From a phage: DNA of 64,000 nt. Below are positions 1,865-38,690 of this stretch, piece by piece (position 1 is the first letter of the stretch; the number at the start of each line of letters is the position of its first letter). A model generated the notes under the pieces. That model was not told where the DNA came from, did no database searches, and saw only the letters and a list, made by a program, of their open reading frames with translations. A program made the translations under genes and the position numbers. The DNA is taken from assembly GCA_014435945.1 (NCBI GenBank), contig GCA_014435945.1_4088.1; one strand, given 5' to 3'.

Positions 1865-2617
1865 GTGATATCAGATAAATTTATACAAAATGCTGGGAAC
1901 AAAAGATTACTTATAATTTCAGGGGCAGGTCTTTCAGTTGAGAGCGGGATGGAACCATTCCGCTTTGATGATGGGTTGTGGGACAATTTCAAAATTAATG
2001 ATGTTTGTAACATTGCACGACTTAGTTCTAAGTATCATGTAGTTCATTCATTTTATAATACATTGCGTGTAAAATTAGGTGAATGTCATCCTAATGAAAT
2101 GCATTACTTTATTAAATCATTAGAAGATTTGTATGGTGATTGTTTTTTACACATGACTTCTAATATGGATGATCTATATACTAGAATTGGTGGAACCGAA
2201 CTCAAACTACACGGAAATTTATGTGAAGTAATTGAGAACTTTTCTATTAATACTGATGATTACAATGTCATTAATTGTGGTTATGAACCATATATTCCTA
2301 AAGCTGATGTTTTTGCAAAACCAAATGTAGTGATGATTGGTGAGTATCATCGCTACGTTGATGGGGTACGTCTCCCCATTTATGAAGAACGAAATGAAGT
2401 GTTGAAAAGTCTCACAGAAAATGATACAGTTGTAGTTATTGGAAGTAGTGATACAGTACTGGTATGGTCCAGACTAGCTGGTGCACTTCCATGCTATAGT
2501 GTAAATGTTAACATCCGAAAAAATGATAATGATTTTCTTTTTAATGAGAAGGTCATCAAACCTGCGACGAAAGCAATTCCACAGGTTGAAACTATAATTA
2601 AGGAACGAATGCGATGA
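1865..2617 (+). CDS. Sir2-family NAD-dependent deacylase/ADP-ribosyltransferase-like protein
   Basis: Sirtuin motifs GAGLSVESG, HPNEMH, NMDDL..LHG, VVMIGE, VIGSSDTV; GTG start 6 nt after AAGGAG. Confidence 0.7.
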   Translation: MISDKFIQNAGNKRLLIISGAGLSVESGMEPFRFDDGLWDNFKINDVCNIARLSSKYHVVHSFYNTLRVKLGECHPNEMHYFIKSLEDLYGDCFLHMTSNMDDLYTRIGGTELKLHGNLCEVIENFSINTDDYNVINCGYEPYIPKADVFAKPNVVMIGEYHRYVDGVRLPIYEERNEVLKSLTENDTVVVIGSSDTVLVWSRLAGALPCYSVNVNIRKNDNDFLFNEKVIKPATKAIPQVETIIKERMR

Positions 2618-3165
2618 GTAAAGCGGAAGTACCACTGGGGCAAATGGGGAAACGTGCAAATTTTGTATTCTGTTTCTTTTATGCAAAAGAATGTACCCCA
2701 TACGCTGGTTATGAACTAAATGATATCCCAGTGGTTAACTTAGTACTCCTACAAGTGCGTTGGGATGGATTGTTGGGTGCATGTGGTGGAACAGTTGAAA
2801 GTACTGATAAGTCATTAGAAGATGCGTTACAGCGTGAAGTTCAAGAAGAAATGAACTATATCATTGACAAAAGTCGCCTGTCTCCATTAAAATCACTTGA
2901 ATTGTTTCCAGAGGGTCACTCACATAGCTATAGTTATGAAATGACTTATGCTGAACTTAAAAAACTTCGTGATAATTATGCATATGGCAAACATGCTAGT
3001 GCAGAGGTGGCTGGTGTAAATTTATGTCACATCTCTCGTTATTCGAAGGGACAAAATCGAGAAGCAGGATATAATAATCTTATGACACAGAACTTCATCG
3101 GAACTGCGAAACAAGAATTAGAGTATCTTGTACAAAAAGAAAACTTACTAATCAGCTATCTATAG
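2614..3165 (+). CDS. Nudix hydrolase
   Basis: Nudix box GGTVESTDKSLEDALQREVQEEMNY (one-residue insertion relative to consensus); start overlaps upstream stop (ATGA). Confidence 0.6.
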   Translation: MSKAEVPLGQMGKRANFVFCFFYAKECTPYAGYELNDIPVVNLVLLQVRWDGLLGACGGTVESTDKSLEDALQREVQEEMNYIIDKSRLSPLKSLELFPEGHSHSYSYEMTYAELKKLRDNYAYGKHASAEVAGVNLCHISRYSKGQNREAGYNNLMTQNFIGTAKQELEYLVQKENLLISYL

Positions 3166-3174
3166 GAGTTTAAA

Positions 3175-3495
3175 ATGTCGTACTCAATGTTCTTGGATGA
3201 TATTCGTGATTATCAAAAATATTATCCTGACCAAGAGATGGTATTGTGTCGTGACTACGAAAGTGCATGTGAATACGTAATCAAAAATGGAATTCCAGCA
3301 TTTGTCTCATTTGACCATGACTTGGGTGACTTGAGTACAGATGAGAAAACGGGATACACTTTTGCCAAATTTCTAATTGATTATATGTTTGAGCATAATA
3401 TTAAAGAACCATTTAAATACTATGTACATAGTAGTAATCCAGTAGGGAAAGTTAATATTGAAACTTACTTAACTAATGGATTTAATGCACTATGA
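3175..3495 (+). CDS. hypothetical protein (possible receiver-like fold)
   Basis: ATG after GGAG; LDDIRD ... FDHDLG pattern loosely reminiscent of a receiver domain; no firm assignment. Confidence 0.45.
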   Translation: MSYSMFLDDIRDYQKYYPDQEMVLCRDYESACEYVIKNGIPAFVSFDHDLGDLSTDEKTGYTFAKFLIDYMFEHNIKEPFKYYVHSSNPVGKVNIETYLTNGFNAL

Positions 3496-3794
3496 TTTCA
3501 ACACATATCAAGAGTCTTATTTGCACAACACTGTTAGGTATAGGTGTTCTATGGTTCAGTTCATATCATGAGAACACTAAACGTTACAATATTCATTACA
3601 ATACAGCGACTGTAACAGGATTAGGTCAATGTAATGAAAATAAATGCTCATTTACTTATAAAACCAGTACTGGTGAAGTTCGTAATGGGTTATCAAGAGA
3701 TCCAGTATCAATTGGTCAACTAGTTTACCAGGAATGCTGGGAGGAAAAGGCTCGTGGTTCAAGATGTTATGTTGAATACGAACCGAGCATGTAA
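3492..3794 (+). CDS. hypothetical protein with N-terminal hydrophobic segment
   Basis: Start overlaps upstream stop; N-terminal TM/signal-like stretch; several Cys. Confidence 0.45.
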   Translation: MISTHIKSLICTTLLGIGVLWFSSYHENTKRYNIHYNTATVTGLGQCNENKCSFTYKTSTGEVRNGLSRDPVSIGQLVYQECWEEKARGSRCYVEYEPSM

Positions 3795-3855
3795 TATTCC
3801 GAGTCACTAACCATTAGTCGAGTACAAGGATGTACTCATAACTCAAGGATGTTTT

Positions 3856-5295
3856 ATGAAAAAATATACAATTGACACAAACGTACTACTATCTGATCCA
3901 AATGCTACCATTGCTTTTGATGGAGCAGCTATCATTCTACCGTTCACAGTACTTGAAGAATTGGATTCAATCAAAAGTCGTAATGTGGATGTTTCCCGTG
4001 ATGCTCGTGTTGCAATCCGTAACATTGAAGCTATCCTTTCTGATGCATCACATGAAGAAATTAGTAGTACTGGTGTTAATATTGCTGATGTTCATACTAA
4101 TATGAGTCCTGAAAGCAAATTGTTTGTTATTACAAGCGAAGAAGCTGAAGCACTAATTCGTACTGCTGGTAACGAAGAGAAAGTTCAAACTCTTCTAAAA
4201 AGCACAGTACCAGATGATAAAATCATTTTAGTAGCATTAGCAACTGATTCAGTACTGGTTACCCGTGATATCAATATGCGTATCAAGGCTCTAAGCTACG
4301 GGGTGGAAGTTCAAGATTACCGTCATGATATCGTGATTGGTGATAGTGATTTGATTCACATTGGTCAACATCACCTTGACCTACATTTCTGGGATGTGTA
4401 TAGTAATCTGACTGATGTATCTATTCAGTCTGAACAAGTTGGTCGTCGTTTGTACCACTACATTCCAAAAAGCTTGATTGAACATATCATGCCACAAAAT
4501 ATTTGCATCGGTGATTACCTATATGATAATGCTGATGTTCTATTTGTGTACGAAGGTCAATCTGCAATTGAAGAAGATGATGGTACTTTAACACCAGAAG
4601 ATATTCTTGTATTCCAAGATATTGGACAATCCGTTGCTCTACGTGCTAAAGTGTGGGATATTAAGGCTAAGAATATTCAACAAGCACTAGCAATCAACAG
4701 TATCCTAGATCCTGATGTTCATCTAACAGTACTGTTAGGTTCAGCAGGTACTGGTAAAACACTAATCACCATTGCAACTGCACTAGAGTTAGTTCTAGAG
4801 AAGAAAAAATACGACCGTATCATCTTCTCCAAAACACAAGATTCCCAATTCGAAGACATTGGTTTCTTGCCTGGTTCTGAAGCAGAGAAAGTGATTCCTT
4901 TCTGTGGTGCGGCAATCGATGCGTTGGAATTCCTACACAAAGATGATGCTAACCCACAAGGCAGTATCGAAGAAATCATGAAACGCAATGTTATCCAATT
5001 CAAAGCACTAAACTTCGTTCGTGGTCGTTCTTTCACAAATACTATCCTAGTAGTTGATGAATTCCAGAACATCACACCTGCTCAGGCAAAAACAATCTTG
5101 ACTCGTGCAGGGATGAACTGTAAAGTGGTTATTATGGGCAACTTGAGCCAGATTGACTCTAAATTCATTAGTCCAGTAAACAGCGGCCTAACTTATGTTA
5201 CCGAGAAGTTCAAGAACTGGGACGGCTGTCGTGTAATCGAACTAGAAGGTGTCGTTCGTTCACCACTAGCAGAATTTGCAGAAGAAAATATGTAA
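3856..5295 (+). CDS. phoH: PhoH-like ATPase with N-terminal PIN domain
   Basis: N-terminal PIN-like IDTNVLL; C-terminal Walker A LLGSAGTGKT and Walker B ILVVDEFQN typical of PhoH. Confidence 0.85.
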   Translation: MKKYTIDTNVLLSDPNATIAFDGAAIILPFTVLEELDSIKSRNVDVSRDARVAIRNIEAILSDASHEEISSTGVNIADVHTNMSPESKLFVITSEEAEALIRTAGNEEKVQTLLKSTVPDDKIILVALATDSVLVTRDINMRIKALSYGVEVQDYRHDIVIGDSDLIHIGQHHLDLHFWDVYSNLTDVSIQSEQVGRRLYHYIPKSLIEHIMPQNICIGDYLYDNADVLFVYEGQSAIEEDDGTLTPEDILVFQDIGQSVALRAKVWDIKAKNIQQALAINSILDPDVHLTVLLGSAGTGKTLITIATALELVLEKKKYDRIIFSKTQDSQFEDIGFLPGSEAEKVIPFCGAAIDALEFLHKDDANPQGSIEEIMKRNVIQFKALNFVRGRSFTNTILVVDEFQNITPAQAKTILTRAGMNCKVVIMGNLSQIDSKFISPVNSGLTYVTEKFKNWDGCRVIELEGVVRSPLAEFAEENM

Positions 5296-5775: not shown

Positions 5776-6333
5776 ATGTTTTTTGACCAAACATTTACGT
5801 TGTACCATGATTCAGGTAAAGTTGAGATTATTGATAATCTGTTAGAGTACATTGCGGAACATGACGGTATAGACCGTTTCCACAGTAAGATGAAATTCGA
5901 TTTAGCTGAATTCAACAAAAAGAATCGTGAAACATTTTGGAAGAACCGTTTCTATTACGAAATGTATCCAGAAAAGTTCGTAGGTTATTATCTTTGTACT
6001 GAAAAAGGATTACTTGTATCTCCTGATTTACTTATGGGTGAATACATGATACTCTATAATGAGTACTGGGAACATAAGCGTAATGCTCGTGACACTGAAT
6101 GGCGACACAAGCGTTCGTATATGTACAAACATAACCACTCCAGATACAAACGTCCTAAGACCCAACAAGAGCGTCGTATGGCTTGTGCAGTACTGAAGGA
6201 TGAGGGGGAACCTGAAATACGTGGAAGACGTAAGATGCGTTCATTGCCATCGTATTGGGATGATATCAGAACAAGACACAGTACTGGCTGGAAATACAGT
6301 ACAAAACGTAAACATCAATACAAAGGGAGCTAA
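5776..6333 (+). CDS. hypothetical protein
   Basis: ATG after AAAGGAG; 185-aa ORF with basic C-terminus. Confidence 0.5.
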   Translation: MFFDQTFTLYHDSGKVEIIDNLLEYIAEHDGIDRFHSKMKFDLAEFNKKNRETFWKNRFYYEMYPEKFVGYYLCTEKGLLVSPDLLMGEYMILYNEYWEHKRNARDTEWRHKRSYMYKHNHSRYKRPKTQQERRMACAVLKDEGEPEIRGRRKMRSLPSYWDDIRTRHSTGWKYSTKRKHQYKGS

Positions 6334-6360
6334 TGCTCCCTAATTTTATAGGTGAACTTT

Positions 6361-6690
6361 ATGAACAAAATTGACGTTACTGTAGTGATTGGTTATATTG
6401 AAATTGAACCGTGTGGCATTGATACCTTTATTGACACTCTTAATAAGTATCGTGCTGAATATGACGGTCACATTAGTCTTTCACCAGACAGTGGTTACGG
6501 CGGTTTTCATGGATACAATGTAATTTGGACCAGAGAAGAAACTGACGAAGAATATAATACACGAATTGAAGCTGAATCTAAAAGACGTGAAGAAATTGAA
6601 CGTCAAGAAATGAAACACTTAATGAACAAGAAATCATTAAGTACCGAAGAGAAATCTAAACTTTTAAAATACATCAAGGATTACATGTAA
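6361..6690 (+). CDS. hypothetical protein
   Basis: ATG chosen in frame with the ORF-track GTG at 6352; charged C-terminal helix. Confidence 0.45.
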   Translation: MNKIDVTVVIGYIEIEPCGIDTFIDTLNKYRAEYDGHISLSPDSGYGGFHGYNVIWTREETDEEYNTRIEAESKRREEIERQEMKHLMNKKSLSTEEKSKLLKYIKDYM

Positions 6691-7337
6691 TGAAAAATGT
6701 ATCACAAGAAAAGATTCTGTACCTTGCAAAGTACAATGGTGGATTTAATATTACCAGTTGTGAATATCATGGTAACATGGCTAAAATGATTGACGAGCTA
6801 CTAGAAGGTAAAATGCTCCGTTGGGAGACAAATGACCTTTGGTACGAATATGCGGGTCAACAATGGGAAAGTGACTACGATAATGCAATTCATACGTATA
6901 CAATTACTAAAAGTGGTGAAGTACGTTTGGCTATCATGCGTTGTGCTTACACTTACAAAAATTTCAAAGATGAAGAAAAGCATATTCGCCGAAATGAAGA
7001 GTTAGTACACCTAATGGGTGAAGCTGGCATTACAATGCATGACTTGTTCAATGATCCAAGATGGACTGGAAAACTGTCCAAAGCAGAATACAAAGCATTA
7101 CGATACATCCAAGAACCAGAAATCAACAAACCTAAAGAATGTATTGATGATGGTGAACTAAGCCTCAAAAATGTATTTGAAAGTACCAGTACTGAAAGTA
7201 TTACAGACATTTCTGTACAGATGGCACTAAAAGCAATGGAACTTTTCAAGACACAATATGAAGGACACAGTGCTGAAGAAGTAGAGCGTGAGTTCATTAC
7301 GCGAGTACAAATTGCATTACATAAATCAAAAAAGTAG
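6690..7337 (+). CDS. hypothetical protein
   Basis: ATG overlapping upstream stop; 215-aa ORF. Confidence 0.5.
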   Translation: MKNVSQEKILYLAKYNGGFNITSCEYHGNMAKMIDELLEGKMLRWETNDLWYEYAGQQWESDYDNAIHTYTITKSGEVRLAIMRCAYTYKNFKDEEKHIRRNEELVHLMGEAGITMHDLFNDPRWTGKLSKAEYKALRYIQEPEINKPKECIDDGELSLKNVFESTSTESITDISVQMALKAMELFKTQYEGHSAEEVEREFITRVQIALHKSKK

Positions 7338-7343
7338 GTTCAT

Positions 7344-7523
7344 ATGAAAATTTTACTTGTACTAATCGCCGTTCTTATGGTATTATCTTGTTCAGTTAGT
7401 AATGGTTCATACATTTACGTATCAGTATTTGAAGAAGCACCAACGAACTGTGTATTAACTCACACTGGTATTGTGTTAGTTAATGGTAAACCATCAATCG
7501 AGTACTTATGTATAGGTGATTAA
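7344..7523 (+). CDS. small putative lipoprotein
   Basis: 59-aa ORF (below ORF-track cutoff); signal peptide with lipobox-like VLSC. Confidence 0.35.
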   Translation: MKILLVLIAVLMVLSCSVSNGSYIYVSVFEEAPTNCVLTHTGIVLVNGKPSIEYLCIGD

Positions 7524-7526
7524 ATT

Positions 7527-7760
7527 ATGAAATTTATTTCTATTGCAATTGTTTCAGCACTCATGATGTTAGTAACAGGCTGTGCACCTAAAGTTCAGGA
7601 GGCTGATGCAGAGTTCATTCGCCAGAATTTGACTAAACTTAACTACGATGGCACATTGTATGCTTGCCATGAGATGCGTCATGGGCAAGATCTTAATCTC
7701 ATGTGCAGGAAGATTGTGAATCGCAAACGTCTTAATACTGTTCCGAAGGATGCACAATGA
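7527..7760 (+). CDS. small putative lipoprotein
   Basis: Signal peptide with lipobox LVTGC. Confidence 0.45.
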   Translation: MKFISIAIVSALMMLVTGCAPKVQEADAEFIRQNLTKLNYDGTLYACHEMRHGQDLNLMCRKIVNRKRLNTVPKDAQ

Positions 7761-12787: not shown

Positions 12788-13114
12788 ATGGATTTAAAGC
12801 CAATTGTGGTTAACAAATATAAAGAACCGTATGATGTGTATATCGGGCGTGGGTCTAAATGGGGAAACCCATTTACCCATATCAGTGATAAACAGACCAA
12901 AGCCGAGTTCATTGTTGCTACAAGGGAAGAATCAATCGAAAAGTTCAGAGAATACATTATTGAGCGTATTTCTAATGGAGAAGTTAAGATTGATGATTTA
13001 CTTGAGTTAGCAGGGAAACGTCTTGGCTGTTTCTGTAAACCGAAATCATGTCATGGTGATGTTCTCGTTGAGATAGTGAGTGCAATATTAGATGAATTAC
13101 CAGACGATAATTAA
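12788..13114 (+). CDS. DUF4326-like protein
   Basis: YIGRGSKWGNPF and CFCKPKSCHGDVL motifs, recalled from memory as DUF4326 signatures; sits between nrdD and nrdG. Confidence 0.45.
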   Translation: MDLKPIVVNKYKEPYDVYIGRGSKWGNPFTHISDKQTKAEFIVATREESIEKFREYIIERISNGEVKIDDLLELAGKRLGCFCKPKSCHGDVLVEIVSAILDELPDDN

Positions 13115-13562
13115 AGACGACCTTATTAATGGGGAGGGAGTAAGATGCTCCCTTTTTGTTAGTGGGTGCAGTCATGGGTGTGCCGGATGCTTCAACGAAG
13201 AAGCATGGGATTATAGAAGTGGACAAGAGTTCAGTACTGATACAATTGATATAATTTTAGCTGAACTCAGTAAGCCTTACGTTAGTGGATTATCCCTCCT
13301 TGGTGGAGATCCTCTAATGAAAAAGAACATAGAAACAATTTTAGAACTATGTAAGATTGTAAAAGAGACTTATCCCAATAAAACTATTTGGTGCTGGAGT
13401 GGATATACTTTAGAAGAGATTATGAATAATCATGCTAAAGACATTCTTCAGTACTTAGATGTATTAGTTGATGGTAAATTTGTTTCAGAAGAAAAGAATT
13501 TAACATTACCATTTCGTGGTTCAAATAACCAACGAATTTTATATAAAAATAAAGACTTTTAA
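13092..13562 (+). CDS. nrdG: anaerobic ribonucleotide reductase activating protein (radical SAM)
   Basis: Cys cluster CSLFVSGCSHGCAGCFN; immediately downstream of nrdD; start overlaps upstream gene. Confidence 0.85.
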   Translation: MNYQTIIKDDLINGEGVRCSLFVSGCSHGCAGCFNEEAWDYRSGQEFSTDTIDIILAELSKPYVSGLSLLGGDPLMKKNIETILELCKIVKETYPNKTIWCWSGYTLEEIMNNHAKDILQYLDVLVDGKFVSEEKNLTLPFRGSNNQRILYKNKDF

Positions 13563-21354: not shown

Positions 21355-21756
21355 ATGACTACAATCGATGATATCTACAGTACTATACGCAATATGAGTA
21401 CAGATAGAAAAGTCTTTGGTGACAAAGAAAAGTCCAAATGTTATGGCATCGATTCTTTTGATATTATTTCATACGAATATAATAACAATGGGACAAGTTC
21501 ACTAAACATTGTGTGTCCACGAGATCCAGAAAATAATTTCATGTACGTTGAAATTAACAATGATGGTATGTTCTTTACTAAAGTATATAAAGGTGGGAAA
21601 GAATACGAACCCATCGAAGTAATGAATGAAGAGAAATTCTTCCAAGAAGATACCATCATCAATCTTGGATTTAGTTACAATGACTATCAAGTACTGGATC
21701 ATGATTTTAAACGATACTATAATGGTTTTCTAAAGGAGTTAACGATTTACTTATGA
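21355..21756 (+). CDS. hypothetical protein
   Basis: 133-aa ORF. Confidence 0.45.
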   Translation: MTTIDDIYSTIRNMSTDRKVFGDKEKSKCYGIDSFDIISYEYNNNGTSSLNIVCPRDPENNFMYVEINNDGMFFTKVYKGGKEYEPIEVMNEEKFFQEDTIINLGFSYNDYQVLDHDFKRYYNGFLKELTIYL

Positions 21757-22991
21757 AAAACAATTTTCTAGAACAAACTATTGTGAAACACTTAGCTGGT
21801 TCACAGGCGTATGGCACAAGCACACCAGAAAGTGATACAGATTATCGTGGTATCTTCCTTGCAAACAAAGAATATATCCTAACTCCTTTTTTTAATGTTA
21901 AGGAAGTTTCAGATACTTCTGAAGAAGATACTAAATTTTATGAAATCAATCAGTACTTAAGTCTGTATACTGAAGCTAACCCAAACATTCTTGAATCACT
22001 ATGGGTTAAACCGGAACACATCGTAGAAAGTACTGAAATCTATGACTATCTACGCTCATTCAATCAGCAATTATTGAGTTCAAAGATTGCACATTCATAC
22101 AGTGGTTATGCATACAATCAGGTTAAGCGTATGTCTAATCACCACGGCTGGCTCGATAAGGAACGAATTGCTGAACGTAAACTAAATGAAATTTTAGAAG
22201 AACATCCAGTTGACGAAGTACTTTCATGGATGTATGATACATTCCCGCAGTATTTGGTAGACCGTTTGAATAAATCCAATCTTCACCCATTCAATGCTAC
22301 AAAAATTGATTTTGAAAAATACATGCGTGATACTTCATTACAATTAGTTTCAACACAAGCATTGAAACAATATCATTTTGTACGTTTAGTACATAATTAT
22401 AGTACTGACAAAGTATTAGATCGTGATTTCAATTTATTGAATTACAATTCAGGGTATGAACTAATCCATTACGGTGAAAACATCTTTGGGGTAATTATCA
22501 ACCCGAATGAAAGTACAGTGAATGCTGATGGTTCACTACGTTACTTCAACAAAGAACGTACTACAGAAGAATTGAAAGTTCGTCCTGAACTCATTGTAAA
22601 ATTCAATGAAAAGGAATACAAAGAAAATAGTGAGAACCGTAAGAGTTATCACAAATGGAAGCAGAATCGTAATGCCAAACGTGCTATTCTTGAATCACAC
22701 CACGGTTATGACTGCAAACATGCTATGCATACAATCAGGCTGCTGAATACAGCACAGGAAGCACTTGAAACTGGTATCATCCAAGTTCACCGACCGGATG
22801 CTGCTATGTTGATGGACATTCGTAACGGGAAGTGGTTGTATCAAGAAGTTATGGATTATTTCAACGAAAAGGTTGACTACATCCGAAATGTGGCGTATCA
22901 TAAGACCCATCTACCGAAGCGACCAAACATAAAGTTGGCTACGAAGGTACTATTAGATATCCGTGAAATGCAATGGTACAGTAAAAAATAA
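21753..22991 (+). CDS. Pol-beta-superfamily nucleotidyltransferase (possibly PF10127-like)
   Basis: N-terminal GSQAYGTSTPESDTDYRGIF (GS ... [DE]xD NTase motif). Confidence 0.45.
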   Translation: MKNNFLEQTIVKHLAGSQAYGTSTPESDTDYRGIFLANKEYILTPFFNVKEVSDTSEEDTKFYEINQYLSLYTEANPNILESLWVKPEHIVESTEIYDYLRSFNQQLLSSKIAHSYSGYAYNQVKRMSNHHGWLDKERIAERKLNEILEEHPVDEVLSWMYDTFPQYLVDRLNKSNLHPFNATKIDFEKYMRDTSLQLVSTQALKQYHFVRLVHNYSTDKVLDRDFNLLNYNSGYELIHYGENIFGVIINPNESTVNADGSLRYFNKERTTEELKVRPELIVKFNEKEYKENSENRKSYHKWKQNRNAKRAILESHHGYDCKHAMHTIRLLNTAQEALETGIIQVHRPDAAMLMDIRNGKWLYQEVMDYFNEKVDYIRNVAYHKTHLPKRPNIKLATKVLLDIREMQWYSKK

Positions 22992-32045: not shown

Positions 32046-32456
32046 ATGATTGAAATGGAAGGAACTCTGGTGTATGATCCAGATCGTGGCACTATGAAAA
32101 AGAAGAAGGACTTCTGGTTAGTACTGCAACTTCCATTACAGTTGGTTCGATACTACCAGTACTTCATCAGAACTGACTTACATATTGATATCAAAGACCC
32201 ACAATGGGGAGCACATGTCAGTATCGTTCGTGGTGAAGTGCCACCAAATCCAGAGTACTGGAAAAAGTACGATGGTATGAAAGTTAAGATTAAGTTCGAA
32301 CCTTTCATCGAAGAAGTAAAAGACAATAAGAAACCTGGGTCATTCTTTATCATAGAGTTTGAAGATGATTTCATTGCACAAATTCGTGATGAACTTGGTT
32401 TAGCATCTAAATATTTCAAATATCACATCACCATTGGTAGAACATACTACGATTAA
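32046..32456 (+). CDS. 2H-phosphoesterase-superfamily protein (LigT-like)
   Basis: Two H-x-[ST]-x motifs about 90 residues apart: GAHVSIVRGE and KYHITIGR. Confidence 0.5.
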   Translation: MIEMEGTLVYDPDRGTMKKKKDFWLVLQLPLQLVRYYQYFIRTDLHIDIKDPQWGAHVSIVRGEVPPNPEYWKKYDGMKVKIKFEPFIEEVKDNKKPGSFFIIEFEDDFIAQIRDELGLASKYFKYHITIGRTYYD

Positions 32457-32623
32457 TGTGGTTATTTGGTAAATAGGTCTTGATATAACTAAAAAGTATG
32501 CTATACTACTTAAATGTTCCAAAGAACAACTGAGTACTGTAGAAAGTCCAATGAGGCTTTTGCAAATGGCCTCTTTGCCCTCTTTGTGATTGCTCATTGT
32601 TAACAACCAACAAAGGAGGCGTT

Positions 32624-33599: not shown

Positions 33600-34232
33600 A
33601 TGATATATAATGTTGGTATAAATGATGTACCAGGTGATTCTAAATCGGATAGTGATGGTTATTATATATATGTGAAATGGAAAAGTATGATTAAACGATG
33701 CTACTCAGTTGAATATCAAAAAATACATCATTCATATATTGGAACAACTGTATGTAATGAATGGCTTACATATTCAAATTTTAAAGATTGGTATCTAAAT
33801 AATTACATAGACGGGTATGTTTTAGATAAAGACTTGATATCGGGTGATTTACAAGTATACTCACCAGTGACATGTTCATTTGTACCACAAGAATTAAATT
33901 GTTCTATTCTTGAAAGTAATAGTGCTAAAACAAAACTACCATTGGGTGTGTCATATCAACAGAAAACTAAAAATATGATAAATGAACGTTCGAAACCATA
34001 TGATTCATATATAAAAATGTATGGTAAGTTGTATCGTCTTGGTAGTTATGAATGTCCTGAACTTGCACATAAAGAATGGCAAATCGCCAAGAAAAAATAT
34101 CTCGAAGAACTCATTGACAGATATAAAAATTCTGTTAAAATGGAAGTCATAGAAGGTATTCAGAAACGAATTGATATATTACATAATGATATAGTCAATA
34201 ACGGTGTTACAATCACAATCAATAAGATATAA
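33600..34232 (+). CDS. putative homing-endonuclease-associated DNA-binding protein
   Basis: WKSMIKRCYS ... YIGTTVCNEWLTYSNFKDW pattern recalled from phage proteins annotated HNH/AP2; tentative. Confidence 0.35.
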   Translation: MIYNVGINDVPGDSKSDSDGYYIYVKWKSMIKRCYSVEYQKIHHSYIGTTVCNEWLTYSNFKDWYLNNYIDGYVLDKDLISGDLQVYSPVTCSFVPQELNCSILESNSAKTKLPLGVSYQQKTKNMINERSKPYDSYIKMYGKLYRLGSYECPELAHKEWQIAKKKYLEELIDRYKNSVKMEVIEGIQKRIDILHNDIVNNGVTITINKI

Positions 34233-34244
34233 GGTAGGTAAATT

Positions 34245-34577
34245 ATGCTAGATTTAGTTATCCAAGGTAATGTTGATATTACTCCAGCAATCAATTACGC
34301 GATTCATGCAGAAGCAAATGCACTAACGAAGTTTAGTGATTCTTCAGTACTTTATATCGGTGTTCATGTGAAGAAAGAGCATAAGTCTCAATACTCTGTG
34401 ACTCTAACATCAGGTAGTAAATCAGTTACTGCCGATGCAGCAGATTTATACAAGGCGATTGCTGATTCATTTGAAAAAATGGAAACTGTATTCAGTAAAG
34501 ACAAAAGCATTAAATTGCACCGCCGAAACCATCCAGAACATCCAGTTCAAGAAGACTTGACTGACAACGAAGAGTAA
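34245..34577 (+). CDS. hypothetical protein
   Basis: 110-aa ORF. Confidence 0.5.
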   Translation: MLDLVIQGNVDITPAINYAIHAEANALTKFSDSSVLYIGVHVKKEHKSQYSVTLTSGSKSVTADAADLYKAIADSFEKMETVFSKDKSIKLHRRNHPEHPVQEDLTDNEE

Positions 34578-34630: not shown

Positions 34631-34810
34631 ATGAATGCAGTACTGATATTTTTAATGTGTGTGGTATTTGGTGCTTTTGGTCTATTCGTAATTTTAGATA
34701 CTGAACCTAGTACTGAAGTAGGTACAACCATTACACTTAAACCTGGTGTTAAAATTAATGATACCTATTGCTACAATCCAAACATAAACCGTTATGAGAT
34801 TTGTTTATGA
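34631..34810 (+). CDS. small membrane protein (hypothetical)
   Basis: ATG 7 nt after GGAG; N-terminal TM helix. Confidence 0.4.
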   Translation: MNAVLIFLMCVVFGAFGLFVILDTEPSTEVGTTITLKPGVKINDTYCYNPNINRYEICL

Positions 34811-35214
34811 AAACATTCAATATTGTTCATATAATTGAACCGATTGCAGAACATATTAAAAACATAAGTAAGAACGATTCAGGTTTTTTCTTCAATTTAG
34901 ACAAACTTCATCGCTATACCAATGTATCTAGTTTTAATCGTGCTAAGAGACTTTATATCCGTATACACAACCTATGGTACAGTGACGATACGTTGATGAT
35001 AGATATTACTGTTGATGAAGACATAACATTAAGATACATTGACGATTTTAAATCAGATGATATTCGTTCTGGCTCATTACCAATTGATGCTTCATATGAA
35101 GAATATATGCAATATCAGTTCATTGATGACACATTTGGATTTGACTTTGATCTATATAATAGTATAATGAACGTATACCATATATACGAAAGGAATTTGA
35201 ATGGACATTCGTAA
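34801..35214 (+). CDS. hypothetical protein, tandem paralog 1
   Basis: C-terminus YMQYQFIDDTFGFDFDLYNSIMNVYHIYERNL resembles the next ORF. Confidence 0.45.
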   Translation: MFMKTFNIVHIIEPIAEHIKNISKNDSGFFFNLDKLHRYTNVSSFNRAKRLYIRIHNLWYSDDTLMIDITVDEDITLRYIDDFKSDDIRSGSLPIDASYEEYMQYQFIDDTFGFDFDLYNSIMNVYHIYERNLNGHS

Positions 35215-35623
35215 AATACCAAATTTCCACAGTACATTAATGTACTTTTCTGAACAAGAAATCAGTACTGAAAGACGTGGTTTAGTTACATATAATCAAC
35301 ATCGTGTTATGTACACTAATAATTTTCAGGGTACTGTACGAATAAAATTTCGTAATGCGTTAGAAGAGAATGATGAATTGTTAATTTTACTAAGAAAAAG
35401 TAAGATTGAATTGACATACGCAACTCACCATATTGAAAGTGAGTTGATGTGGCACACCCTATCAAAAAAAGAAGGTTCATTGCCAGTTGTTGATAATGGT
35501 CCTGAAACACTTGATCAGTACATGTTCATTGATGATACATTTAGTATTGACTATCCATCATTTCAGTGTATACTAGATATACATGCAAAATATTACGACC
35601 GTCTACGTGATAGATTAATTTAA
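35201..35623 (+). CDS. hypothetical protein, tandem paralog 2
   Basis: C-terminus LDQYMFIDDTFSIDYPSFQCILDIHAKYYDRL. Confidence 0.45.
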   Translation: MDIRKIPNFHSTLMYFSEQEISTERRGLVTYNQHRVMYTNNFQGTVRIKFRNALEENDELLILLRKSKIELTYATHHIESELMWHTLSKKEGSLPVVDNGPETLDQYMFIDDTFSIDYPSFQCILDIHAKYYDRLRDRLI

Positions 35624-35758: not shown

Positions 35759-36874
35759 ATGAAAAAGTATTTGGTTGGTGGCTACGTTCGTGACCGTTTA
35801 ATGGGCATCCGTGCAAAAGACAAAGATTATGTTATTGTTGGTGCTACCGAATCCGATATTAAGTACTTGCAAAGTATTGGATACAAGCAAGTAGGTAAGG
35901 ATTTCCCTGTATATCTAAGTCCAGAAGGTAATGAACACGCATTAGCCCGTACTGAGCGTAAAACTGGTACTGGATATGGTGGCTTCGAAGTGAATACAAA
36001 AGGTGTGACACTAGAACAAGATCTATATCGTCGTGATCTCACAATCAATAGTATTGCATATGATCCAGTACTCCAGATTCACATCGACCCTTATGGCGGG
36101 AAAGCTGATATCAAGAACAAAGTACTTCGTCATGTATCAGAACACTTTAAAGAAGATCCATTGCGTGTTCTACGTTTGGCCCGTTTCGCTACGCGTTACT
36201 CCGACTTTACAATCCATGATGATACTATGACAATGTGTAAAGATATGGTTAGTACTGGTGAACTAGACCATCTAGTCCCAGAACGTGTATTTGTTGAATT
36301 CGAAAAAGCACTTTCTGAAGAAAACCCTTCCAAGTTTATCAAAACTCTGGTACAATTTGGTTATTACGAAAAGGCATTTACTACAGTTCCAGTTACCAAG
36401 AAACGTCTGGAATTAATTGATGCTATCGCTGCAAATTGTACAGAAGAATATAAACCATATTTCTTATGGACAGTACTTCTTGAAAATGAAGAAGTAAATA
36501 ATGATTCAGTACTTAACGGTTCCATTAAGGTTCCAGTTAAGTACGTGAAGTTTAGTAATTACATCAAGCGTTTCCGTGAAGATATTAAAACCTTCCGTAA
36601 GAAGACCCCAGTTGAAATGGGGCAAATCTTACTGGATATGAATATCAAAAACAATGGTGGTGAAGATTTCCTTTACAAAGTACTGGAAAACTTCATTTTG
36701 AACAAAGAAATTGATTCTGAACTTGAAGATTTGATTATTAAAGTTTATGATCGTTATACTGATGTTGAATTACCTGATATTCAGCAGTTAGTGAAAGATG
36801 GTGAACTCCAAACATCGGAGATTCGTGATTTTGTTGCTGAATTGCGTATTGAAGCAATCAAGCAAATGTTCTAA
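35759..36874 (+). CDS. cca: tRNA nucleotidyltransferase (CCA-adding enzyme)
   Basis: Head-domain motifs GGYVRDRLMG, DxD, RRDLTINSIAYD, ERKTGTGYGGF. Confidence 0.85.
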   Translation: MKKYLVGGYVRDRLMGIRAKDKDYVIVGATESDIKYLQSIGYKQVGKDFPVYLSPEGNEHALARTERKTGTGYGGFEVNTKGVTLEQDLYRRDLTINSIAYDPVLQIHIDPYGGKADIKNKVLRHVSEHFKEDPLRVLRLARFATRYSDFTIHDDTMTMCKDMVSTGELDHLVPERVFVEFEKALSEENPSKFIKTLVQFGYYEKAFTTVPVTKKRLELIDAIAANCTEEYKPYFLWTVLLENEEVNNDSVLNGSIKVPVKYVKFSNYIKRFREDIKTFRKKTPVEMGQILLDMNIKNNGGEDFLYKVLENFILNKEIDSELEDLIIKVYDRYTDVELPDIQQLVKDGELQTSEIRDFVAELRIEAIKQMF

Positions 36875-36949: not shown

Positions 36950-37394
36950 ATGCGTTATAGCTGTGGTATAATATTTTATCGTGATGGTCAGATACTTATC
37001 GGGCATACAACACGGACAGAATCACTGGGACTTACCTAAAGGTAAAACTGAAGGTACAGAAACATTTAAAGAGGCTGCTGTACGTGAATGCTACGAAGAG
37101 ACAGGATATGAAATCGATGAAGATGATCTTCTGTTTCTTGGTGATGTATCGTATAGAAAGGGGAAACGTTTAGTTTTATTTTTCTATACAGCCAAAGATA
37201 AGCCTATACCAGAAGAGTTGGTGTGTAAAAGTACTTACACAAACAGATATGGTAGAAGTCACCCAGAATTGGATAAGTTCATGTACATTGATGTACTAGA
37301 TTGTCAAAAGTATTTGACTGAACGAATGTGTAACAGTATAATAAAGGCTGTTACAATGTTTCAACGAAATAAAGGGAAAAGAAATGAAAGTTAA
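36950..37394 (+). pseudogene. Nudix hydrolase with apparent +1 frameshift near codon 25
   Basis: Frame A (ATG 36950) encodes Nudix-like N-terminus GIIFYRDGQILIGHTTR then stops at 37037; frame B (+1) encodes LPKGKTEGTETFKEAAVRECYEETGY (perfect Nudix box) to 37394. Confidence 0.55.
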
Positions 37395-38213: not shown

Positions 38214-38690
38214 ATGATACATGAACACCTAGGTAATTTGTTTGAATTGTTCAACTCTGTTACTGATGATCAAACCGCGTTGCATATAATCGCTCATGGT
38301 TGTAATGCACAGGGTAAGATGGGTTCGGGTTTTGCAAAAGAACTAAGAAATCGTTACCCGATGGCATATGATGATTATAAAGCATATGAAAAGGAAATGG
38401 GATTTCTAAGAACAGGACAAATTTCATATTCTTCTATAAGTGATGATTTGCTTATCGCAAACTGCATTACCCAACAGTACTATGGTAATGACGGTTCTAA
38501 GTATGTAAGTTATGATGCAATCGATGATGTTTTCAAACAACTAAATTACTTATGTAACGTTGAACGCACTGTTCATGTACACTTCCCGAAAATTGGAGCC
38601 GATTTAGGCGGTGGTAACTGGAACGTTATCAAAGAAATCATTGACCACAGACTGGTTAATGCAGAAAAACACTTATACATTCTAAAATAA
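38214..38690 (+). CDS. macro-domain protein (ADP-ribose binding/processing)
   Basis: ALHIIAHGCNAQGKMGSGFA resembles the macro-domain motif [IV]xHxxNCQGxMGAGIA. Confidence 0.55.
   Translation: MIHEHLGNLFELFNSVTDDQTALHIIAHGCNAQGKMGSGFAKELRNRYPMAYDDYKAYEKEMGFLRTGQISYSSISDDLLIANCITQQYYGNDGSKYVSYDAIDDVFKQLNYLCNVERTVHVHFPKIGADLGGGNWNVIKEIIDHRLVNAEKHLYILK

Follow-up and report, generated by a model that had tools for sequence, protein, structure and literature searches.

The locus considered here raises the question of which phosphodiester bond a small, free-standing phage enzyme with two H-x-[ST]-x motifs acts on. The gene lies on contig GCA_014435945.1_4088.1 of the GenBank assembly GCA_014435945.1, a phage sequence of which a stretch of 64,000 nucleotides was analysed (hereafter the window). 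A sequence-only reading of this stretch had described the product as a small 2H phosphoesterase that might degrade the messengers of the CBASS, Pycsar or Thoeris systems of the host. We found the open reading frame (ORF) at 32046-32456, its length of 136 aa and its motifs HVSI and HITI just as that reading had given them. The gene belongs to the 2H-SAK family of phage proteins, and we consider it an even call that its product is a metal-independent cyclic phosphodiesterase whose substrate, product and role we infer to lie in the healing of tRNA ends and in the clean-up of ADP-ribose cyclic phosphate (ADPr>P).

A minimal 2H protein with an invariant histidine pair

The gene and its two motifs are located as follows.

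32046..32456, plus strand: 2H gene, coding for a 136-aa stand-alone 2H phosphoesterase (ATG at 32046, stop codon ending at 32456); PF22547 2H-SAK family, PHROG 12204
32214..32225, plus strand: motif 1, H57-V-S-I (residues 57-60), followed by the conserved R62-G63-E64; predicted catalytic
32424..32435, plus strand: motif 2, H127-I-T-I (residues 127-130), followed by G131-R132; predicted catalytic

A bare pair of H-x-[ST]-x motifs is weak evidence for 2H identity: in the complete genome of a close relative, 19 of the 317 ORFs with lengths of 100-200 aa (6%) have two or more such motifs. Among shuffled versions of the window 2H protein the share was only 0.8%, and one other gene only of the related genome had a hydrophobic-flanked pair at a spacing of 55-90. 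In the case of the window protein, the pair is more than chance because of its conservation and of the predicted fold. In an alignment of 23 homologues with 50-88% identity, both histidines, T129, R62-G63-E64 and G131-R132-T133 were invariant. When the alignment was widened to 93 homologues with 23-56% identity to the window protein, H57 and H127 were the sole invariant columns, and T129 was conserved in at least 90% of the sequences; a subset of 40 sequences, which was also used to fetch related loci, kept the S, R, G and E of the motif-1 region without exception. Further conserved residues are Y10, P12, W72 and R114. Of 65 representatives, almost all carry HxS at the first site and HxT at the second, and both motifs are flanked by hydrophobic residues on each side, with one motif per lobe, as is characteristic of the 2H superfamily. 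The H57/H127 dyad is thus under strong purifying selection. A hydrophobic-flanked pair, HVSV and HCTV at a distance of 59 residues, also occurs in a 107-aa ORF in the terminal repeat of the jumbo coliphage vB_Ec-M-J (locus L023, 8459-8782); since this ORF has no similarity to the 2H-SAK profile, its motif pair is probably due to chance.

The single Pfam match of the window protein was to PF22547 (2H-SAK), with 23.8 bits and an E-value of 5.9e-5 at a gathering cut-off of 27 bits, and the matching region (profile positions 82-122 of 124) takes in motif 2. All 23 aligned close homologues matched the same family (best E-value 3.9e-10), most database relatives carry PF22547 as a precomputed label and one relative is so named by UniRef. 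Since the protein itself scores below the cut-off and its homologues match, membership rests on transitive homology and not on its own score. The match to PHROG 12204 carries no function label, and NCBIfam gave no match for the protein. In a profile search against 1.84 billion cluster representatives (clustered at 50% identity), 903 sequences were found at E≤1e-3 and 328 at E≤1e-10, which puts the family at 903 clusters or more. Among the 150 family members listed, lengths were mostly 130-170 aa, which indicates that the members are stand-alone domains.

Searches of all PDB sequences, including E. coli LigT, PH0099 and YjcG, with the single protein and with the profiles of the 23 and the 93 homologues returned noise only and no 2H match (E-values up to 10 for the profiles), so that the fold had to be assigned by structure prediction. 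The AlphaFold2 model built on the alignment was of high confidence (pLDDT 85.1, pTM 0.77) and showed a bilobed alpha+beta fold of the 2H type, in which motif 1 lies on the predicted strand E57-59 and motif 2 on the predicted strand E126-132. The proposal of a small free-standing 2H phosphoesterase in a phage was therefore borne out by the Pfam family, by the invariant histidine pair and by a model in which both motifs lie on β-strands, and on the basis of this model we place the protein in the 2H superfamily, as a member that is both minimal and divergent.

A family carried almost entirely by phages

The window shares 88-98% identity with the Asteriusvirus jumbo coliphages Ecwhy_1, TH47, vB_Ec-M-J, PBECO4 and 121Q, which measure about 350-385 kb, and the 2H protein is 100% identical to 'hypothetical proteins' of several Asteriusvirus phages. 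Homologues with 54-63% identity are encoded by the jumbo phages RaK2, GAP32, CBB, BF and fHe-Yen9, and more distant ones with 26-35% identity by Bacillus phage G, Agrobacterium phage Atu_ph07, Ralstonia phage RsoM2USA and Sinorhizobium phage Phosso. Altogether, 76 phage records contained a 2H homologue. A scan with the best-conserved motif of the family over one genome per species (185,579 species) yielded 8 loci only, namely six contigs of metagenome-assembled genomes, two of which exceed 300 kb and are possibly mis-binned phages, and two Paenibacillus chromosomes, where the gene context was uninformative. The 2H-SAK family is thus essentially phage-borne. In one rare non-phage case, the chromosome of Paenibacillus mellifer (locus L116, 7956-8333), a stand-alone 125-aa homologue with both HxS/T motifs has common chromosomal genes around it (GNAT, TetR, transporters).

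Practically all GenBank records looked at label the gene 'hypothetical protein'. It is an ordinary member of a curated and previously discussed phage family and, at the family level, already known. In the Pfam name, SAK stands for Swiss Army Knife, a concept of RNA repair that reportedly goes back to Burroughs and Aravind in 2016. The window protein resembles the PF22547 family in the profile match, in the two HxS/T motifs, in being phage-borne and in the HAD_SAK_2 gene found near some of its relatives. It differs from the SAK systems in that it is a stand-alone minimal domain, and a HAD_SAK partner was undetectable in its lineage.

Relation to Acb1 and other 2H enzymes

The 2H enzyme that Hobbs et al. 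2022 defined as an anti-CBASS nuclease, Acb1 (T4 gp57B; PDB 7T26/7T27), has the same minimal size as the window protein and a nearly equal distance between the two histidines (69 residues in T4 Acb1, 70 in the window protein). In order to compare the two, we took Acb1 from the T4 record. Tblastn of T4 Acb1 on the window gave no match, and phmmer and hmmsearch revealed no sequence link between 2H-SAK and Acb1. With hhalign, the alignment of 23 homologues matched T4 Acb1 with a probability of 0.5%, and the alignment of 93 homologues matched a six-sequence Acb1 profile with a probability of 33% over 34 columns. In the latter match, it is the C-terminal lobe of 2H-SAK that aligns to the N-terminal lobe of Acb1, which reflects the generic similarity between the lobes of the duplicated 2H fold. 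The comparisons with Acb1 and with LigT which the sequence-only reading had called for thus gave no sequence homology to either.

The genomic company of the two families differs as well, as T4 acb1 adjoins 57A and gene 1. The two also occur side by side. The IMG/VR contigs L077 and L078 carry a genuine Acb1 (E-value 7e-19 to the six-sequence profile; 12802-13212, minus strand) at a distance of 4.4 kb from their 2H-SAK gene, and Yersinia phage fHe-Yen9-04 has, in addition to a 2H-SAK protein with 55% identity (P0015), a separate Acb1 that is identified by its UniProt name only. This co-existence in single phages shows that the families are not interchangeable. The complete genome of vB_Ec-M-J contains one 2H-SAK gene, and no Acb1 was detectable in it by sequence and profile searches. 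The possibility that the window protein is the Acb1 of this phage was rejected, as there is no homology at the sequence or profile level and both families occur in one contig.

Other 2H enzymes are more remote. In comparison to the archaeal and bacterial '2'-5' RNA ligase' cyclic phosphodiesterases (LigT, ThpR), the window protein is about 30-50 residues shorter and the likeness is structural only. Likewise, yeast Cpd1, the Arabidopsis CPDase and the CPD domain of Trl1 (the fungal and plant tRNA ligase) are distant, structure-only relatives; the phage differs from the Trl1-type pathway in that no Tpt1/KptA was detected and in that the phage ligases of the neighbourhood are of the PF09414 type. 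The 2',5'-phosphodiesterases of the coronavirus ns2, rotavirus VP3 and AKAP7 type have no sequence similarity to the window protein, and we know of no 2-5A, the substrate of these enzymes, in bacteria.

Company of the 2H-SAK genes across lineages

The neighbourhood of the gene was compared across 74 loci from IMG/VR; grouped at 70% identity of their 2H proteins, these make up 39 lineages. Neighbours within ±8 kb were clustered and the recurrent clusters annotated; the Pfam-annotated contigs of distant members were inspected in addition. The following genes were found near the 2H gene.

CCA-adding enzyme: 8 of 39 lineages, 17 loci
RNA ligase (PF09414, in three separate clusters): 9 of 39 lineages
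NADAR: 6 of 39 lineages
NUDIX: 6 of 39 lineages, 16 loci
YqeY: 5 of 39 lineages
Macro: 5 of 39 lineages
NAMPT: 3 of 39 lineages
RlaP: 2 of 39 IMG/VR lineages, 5 loci including L101; also in the contig of P0116
HAD_SAK_2, PNK-like kinase, cREC and Sir2: one lineage each

Among the neighbours with a functional name, the CCA-adding enzyme is the one seen most often. In 18 of the lineages, the 2H gene has one or more RNA-repair or tRNA genes within 8 kb, and in 16 it has an NAD/ADP-ribose (ADPr) gene at such a distance; by an estimate from the coordinates of one complete genome, about 14% of positions are expected to have an RNA-repair gene within 8 kb. Since the order and the relative positions of the neighbours vary between lineages, the linkage is probably more than inherited synteny. 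A HAD_SAK_2 phosphatase gene lies 2-3 kb from the 2H gene in loci L003 and L012/L013, and in Bacillus phage G a Macro gene lies 3 kb from the homologue. This recurrent company of RNA-repair, tRNA and NAD/ADPr genes agrees with the curated family name and with published predictions. In GAP32/BF-type jumbo phages (13 loci; in L059 at 6044-7561), a protein of about 505 aa with DUF2828/DUF7788 is encoded between the RNA ligase and the 2H-SAK gene; it has no counterpart at that position in the window.

The most specific functional clue is the link to YqeY, a GatB-tail-like domain which acts as a tRNA affinity enhancer in Deinococcus GlnRS. In the 335-aa protein P0043, the 2H domain is naturally fused to a YqeY domain (E-value 4e-17); among the long family members checked for fusions, this was the only one found, and the other extensions contained no Pfam domain. 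In Atu_ph07 (locus L081, 8827-9285), about 400 bp separate the 2H gene from the start of a YqeY gene downstream; in BF and fHe-Yen9-04 YqeY follows 4.7 kb downstream, and in L003, L012, L014 and L101 it lies 2-4 kb upstream. Fusion and linkage point to tRNA as the macromolecular substrate.

The repair island of the window

In the window itself, genes of the same kinds form a loose island around the 2H gene.

35759..36874, plus strand: CCA-adding tRNA nucleotidyltransferase, 371 aa (Pfam PolyA_pol and PolyA_pol_RNAbd, i.e. head and RNA-binding domains)
36981..37394, plus strand: NUDIX hydrolase (Pfam NUDIX, E-value 1e-11); candidate downstream step in ADP-ribose breakdown
38214..38690, plus strand: Macro-domain protein of the Appr-1''-p phosphatase type (weak match to Pfam Macro, E-value 5e-4, 20.4 bits against a threshold of 22)
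21753..22991, plus strand: RlaP-family (RNA-ligase-associated Pol-beta) nucleotidyltransferase, 412 aa (Pfam RlaP, E-value 4e-17; PHROG 388)
1865-2617, plus strand: Sir2, first gene of a tight co-directional cluster
2614-3165, plus strand: NUDIX, same cluster
3175-3495, plus strand: cREC, same cluster, followed by a 100-aa ORF
3856-5295, plus strand: PIN-PhoH, last gene of the cluster

No HD phosphohydrolase domain was detected in the 371-aa CCA-adding enzyme, which is a candidate partner of the 2H enzyme. The Macro-domain protein is a candidate for a downstream step; it also matches PHROG 335 'phosphatase' (E-value 3e-46), and its homologue in L060 scores 23.8 bits. The RlaP gene, 9 kb upstream of the 2H gene, belongs to the same loose RNA-repair island; the first 130 or so residues of its product match Pfam RlaP, and the C-terminal part of about 280 residues has no Pfam assignment. 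The cluster at 1865..5295, located 27-30 kb upstream of the 2H gene, was named by way of the syntenic annotation of vB_Ec-M-J and, for cREC, by phmmer (E-value 2e-18 to a Pfam cREC_REC protein). It is the Sir2-NUDIX-cREC-PIN/PhoH set of Iyer et al. 2022, who proposed that the sirtuin/Nudix/cREC/PIN neighbourhood of Serratia phage BF is an NAD+-dependent RNA-repair system and linked it to 2H enzymes.

The window contains no tRNA gene. The complete vB_Ec-M-J genome has five, at a distance of about 170 kb from the 2H gene, and the phage type encodes an RNA ligase, a polynucleotide kinase (PNK) and tRNAs, in support of a role in repair; for another Asteriusvirus, an RNA ligase and eight tRNAs were reported. 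When the neighbours known from other lineages were sought in the complete vB_Ec-M-J genome, cREC and Macro only were found, and YqeY, HAD_SAK_2, NAMPT, NADAR and DUF3307 were not.

Proposed role

In 2H enzymes, the two histidines act as general acid and general base without a metal ion, and such enzymes hydrolyse 2',3'-cyclic phosphates, with 2'-phosphates as products, or cut 2',5' or 3',5' bonds by way of cyclic intermediates. According to the mechanism that we propose, metal-independent anticodon or other tRNA nucleases of the host would leave 2',3'-cyclic phosphate ends on tRNA or other RNA, and the predicted 2H enzyme, with His57 and His127 as general acid and base, would open these ends to a 2'-phosphate and a 3'-OH. 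Once the end is open, its dephosphorylation and its resealing or rebuilding may fall to the PNK/phosphatase, the RNA ligase, RlaP and the CCA-adding enzyme of the phage. The 2'-phosphate could be removed in two ways, either by a phosphatase (the PNK/phosphatase of the phage, or HAD_SAK in other lineages), or after ligation by an NAD+-dependent transferase (host KptA, perhaps the phage sirtuin), which would release ADPr>P. The latter might be degraded by the same 2H enzyme, then by Macro and then by NUDIX. When 3' ends of tRNA are repaired, the stand-alone 2H enzyme could in addition take the place of the HD domain that was undetected in the phage CCA-adding enzyme. The HD domain of the E. coli CCA-adding enzyme is said to have 2',3'-cyclic phosphodiesterase and phosphatase activities, reportedly found by Yakunin and colleagues in 2004.

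Published predictions run along similar lines. Iyer et al. 2021 described the 2H enzymes of jumbo phages as specialists for 2',3'-cyclic phosphates that arise from tRNA cleavage and NAD+-dependent RNA processing, and named RNA repair or the removal of alarm signals as their possible roles; that the phage sirtuin is a transferase removing 2'-phosphates is a prediction in Iyer et al. 2022.

Several points weigh against this proposal. The immediate neighbours of the 2H gene are small ORFs of no known function and a lysozyme gene, and the linkage to repair genes is of island scale (median distances 3-6 kb) and not operonic. Common ancestry and synteny link many of the 39 lineages, so that their counts are non-independent, and they stand without matched control loci. 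The RNA ligase and the PNK of vB_Ec-M-J are encoded far from the 2H gene, at an upstream distance of about 47-49 kb, and YqeY, HAD_SAK_2 and NAMPT went undetected in the lineage of the window, as represented by that genome. A T4-type PNK/phosphatase is able to heal cyclic ends alone, in which case the 2H enzyme would be partly redundant. Neither the phage nor the neighbourhoods yielded a homologue of KptA/Tpt1 in a search of limited sensitivity that had E. coli KptA as its single query, and on this ground the idea that the phage makes ADPr>P with a Tpt1/KptA of its own was rejected. Finally, searches of the literature turned up no experimental work on the 2H-SAK family.

Alternative roles

The recurrence of NUDIX, Macro, NADAR, NAMPT, NAD kinase and cREC genes near 2H-SAK genes could mean that the protein is primarily a small-molecule enzyme of ADP-ribose metabolism, working in series with the Macro phosphatase and the NUDIX pyrophosphatase in the manner of yeast Cpd1 or the plant CPDase. 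This would fit the share of lineages with an NAD/ADPr gene nearby (16 of 39, as given above), the proximity of Macro to the homologue of Bacillus phage G and the position of the NUDIX and Macro genes of the window 4.5-6 kb downstream of the 2H gene, and the pathway has been described (Iyer et al. 2021, 2022). The missing phage enzyme for making ADPr>P speaks against it, the sirtuin alternative being a prediction itself, and so do the fusion with and linkage to YqeY and the linkage to RNA ligases and the CCA-adding enzyme, all of which point to RNA and not to a free metabolite. We therefore think it rather unlikely that this is the primary role, although such an activity is not mutually exclusive with one on RNA and overlaps with the tRNA end-healing proposed above. 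On an RNA substrate, the enzyme might alternatively remove 2',3'-cyclic termini or 2',3'-cNMPs so that host sensors of the CARF/WYL type stay untriggered, with no restoration of the RNA. Iyer et al. 2021 put forward such erasure of an alarm for the 2H enzymes of jumbo phages, and it suits both the stand-alone architecture and the redundancy with the phage PNK/phosphatase. No data separate it from repair, but the linkage to ligases, the CCA-adding enzyme and RlaP favours actual repair, and we judge it very improbable.

The role in counter-defence favoured by the sequence-only reading would have the enzyme hydrolyse the cyclic di- and trinucleotides of CBASS, 2'-5'-linked or other cyclic oligonucleotides, as an Acb1-like enzyme of independent lineage. 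The size and histidine spacing shared with T4 Acb1, the widespread and phage-restricted family and the niche that an Asteriusvirus genome with no recognisable Acb1 leaves open are in line with this, and the degradation of signals by 2H enzymes is proven for phages as well as for eukaryotic viruses (Hobbs et al. 2022; Iyer et al. 2022). However, homology to Acb1 was seen neither with single sequences nor with profiles, and the structural scores barely set Acb1 apart from ns2, Usb1, LigT and CNPase and thus do not discriminate between the subfamilies. Both Acb1 and 2H-SAK are present in L077/L078 and, to go by the names in UniProt, in fHe-Yen9-04; the company of the gene consists of genes for RNA repair, tRNA and NAD and not of other anti-defence genes, and the fusion partner is the tRNA-binding YqeY domain. 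The assignment as a degrader of CBASS, Pycsar or Thoeris messengers thus found no support in our analysis, and we hold it to be unlikely. A variant to which we would give just as little credence is that stand-alone 2H-SAK proteins constitute a second, Acb1-independent family of counter-defence phosphodiesterases, which destroys a nucleotide-derived signal that Acb1 leaves untouched. This signal may be a messenger that is terminated by a 2',3'-cyclic phosphate or derived from ADPr, or RNA ends with a cyclic phosphate (RNA>p) that serve as a host alarm; destruction of a signal beyond the reach of Acb1 would explain why some phages keep both enzymes.

Further features of the region

The 2H gene is the last of a run of small ORFs of no known function and is followed by a gap of 140 bp and the lysozyme gene. 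Other features of this region are the following.

32480..32507, plus strand: sigma-70-like promoter match (TTGATA-16-TATACT with TG) from a consensus scan, in the 140-bp gap
33600-34232: 210-aa ORF matching the C-terminal half of the HNH endonuclease PHROG 953 (E-value 4e-68)
34245-34577: ribosome hibernation factor, S30AE (HPF/RaiA-like; Pfam E-value 2e-8)
34801-35623: two adjacent, slightly overlapping ORFs of 137 and 140 aa, both PHROG 20693, of no known function

The promoter match weakly suggests that the 2H gene ends its transcription unit and that the lysozyme gene opens a new one; the region around the 2H gene holds fewer promoter-like sites than shuffled sequences, which makes the match a weak one, and a scan for promoters and terminators in this region gave no enrichment over shuffles. 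The HNH ORF is inserted between the lysozyme and the hibernation factor genes; vB_Ec-M-J and phAPEC6 lack it, and JNE01 has it. From this patchy presence as an insertion, the ORF probably codes for a homing endonuclease or for what is left of such an enzyme. The two ORFs at 34801-35623, which match the same PHROG, are tandem paralogues. Outside the window, the vB_Ec-M-J genome contains at 333-351 kb (L029, 3206-20767, minus strand) an array of 14 tandem paralogous RCC1-like genes of about 375 aa, annotated as 'regulator of chromosome condensation'.

Implications

The gain from this analysis is a better annotation of a gene labelled 'hypothetical protein', and the comparative-genomics picture remains unchanged. 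The 2H-SAK family is abundant, and its members are tiny and easily expressed, so that a panel of substrates could tell roles in repair, in the turnover of ADPr>P and in the degradation of signals apart. The recurrent link to YqeY, together with a CCA-adding enzyme that lacks the HD domain, provides a concrete and testable idea of tRNA end repair. If the proposed role in repair is true, the 2H enzyme would be one more part of the tRNA-repair and NAD/ADPr toolkit of jumbo phages against tRNA-cutting nucleases of their hosts.

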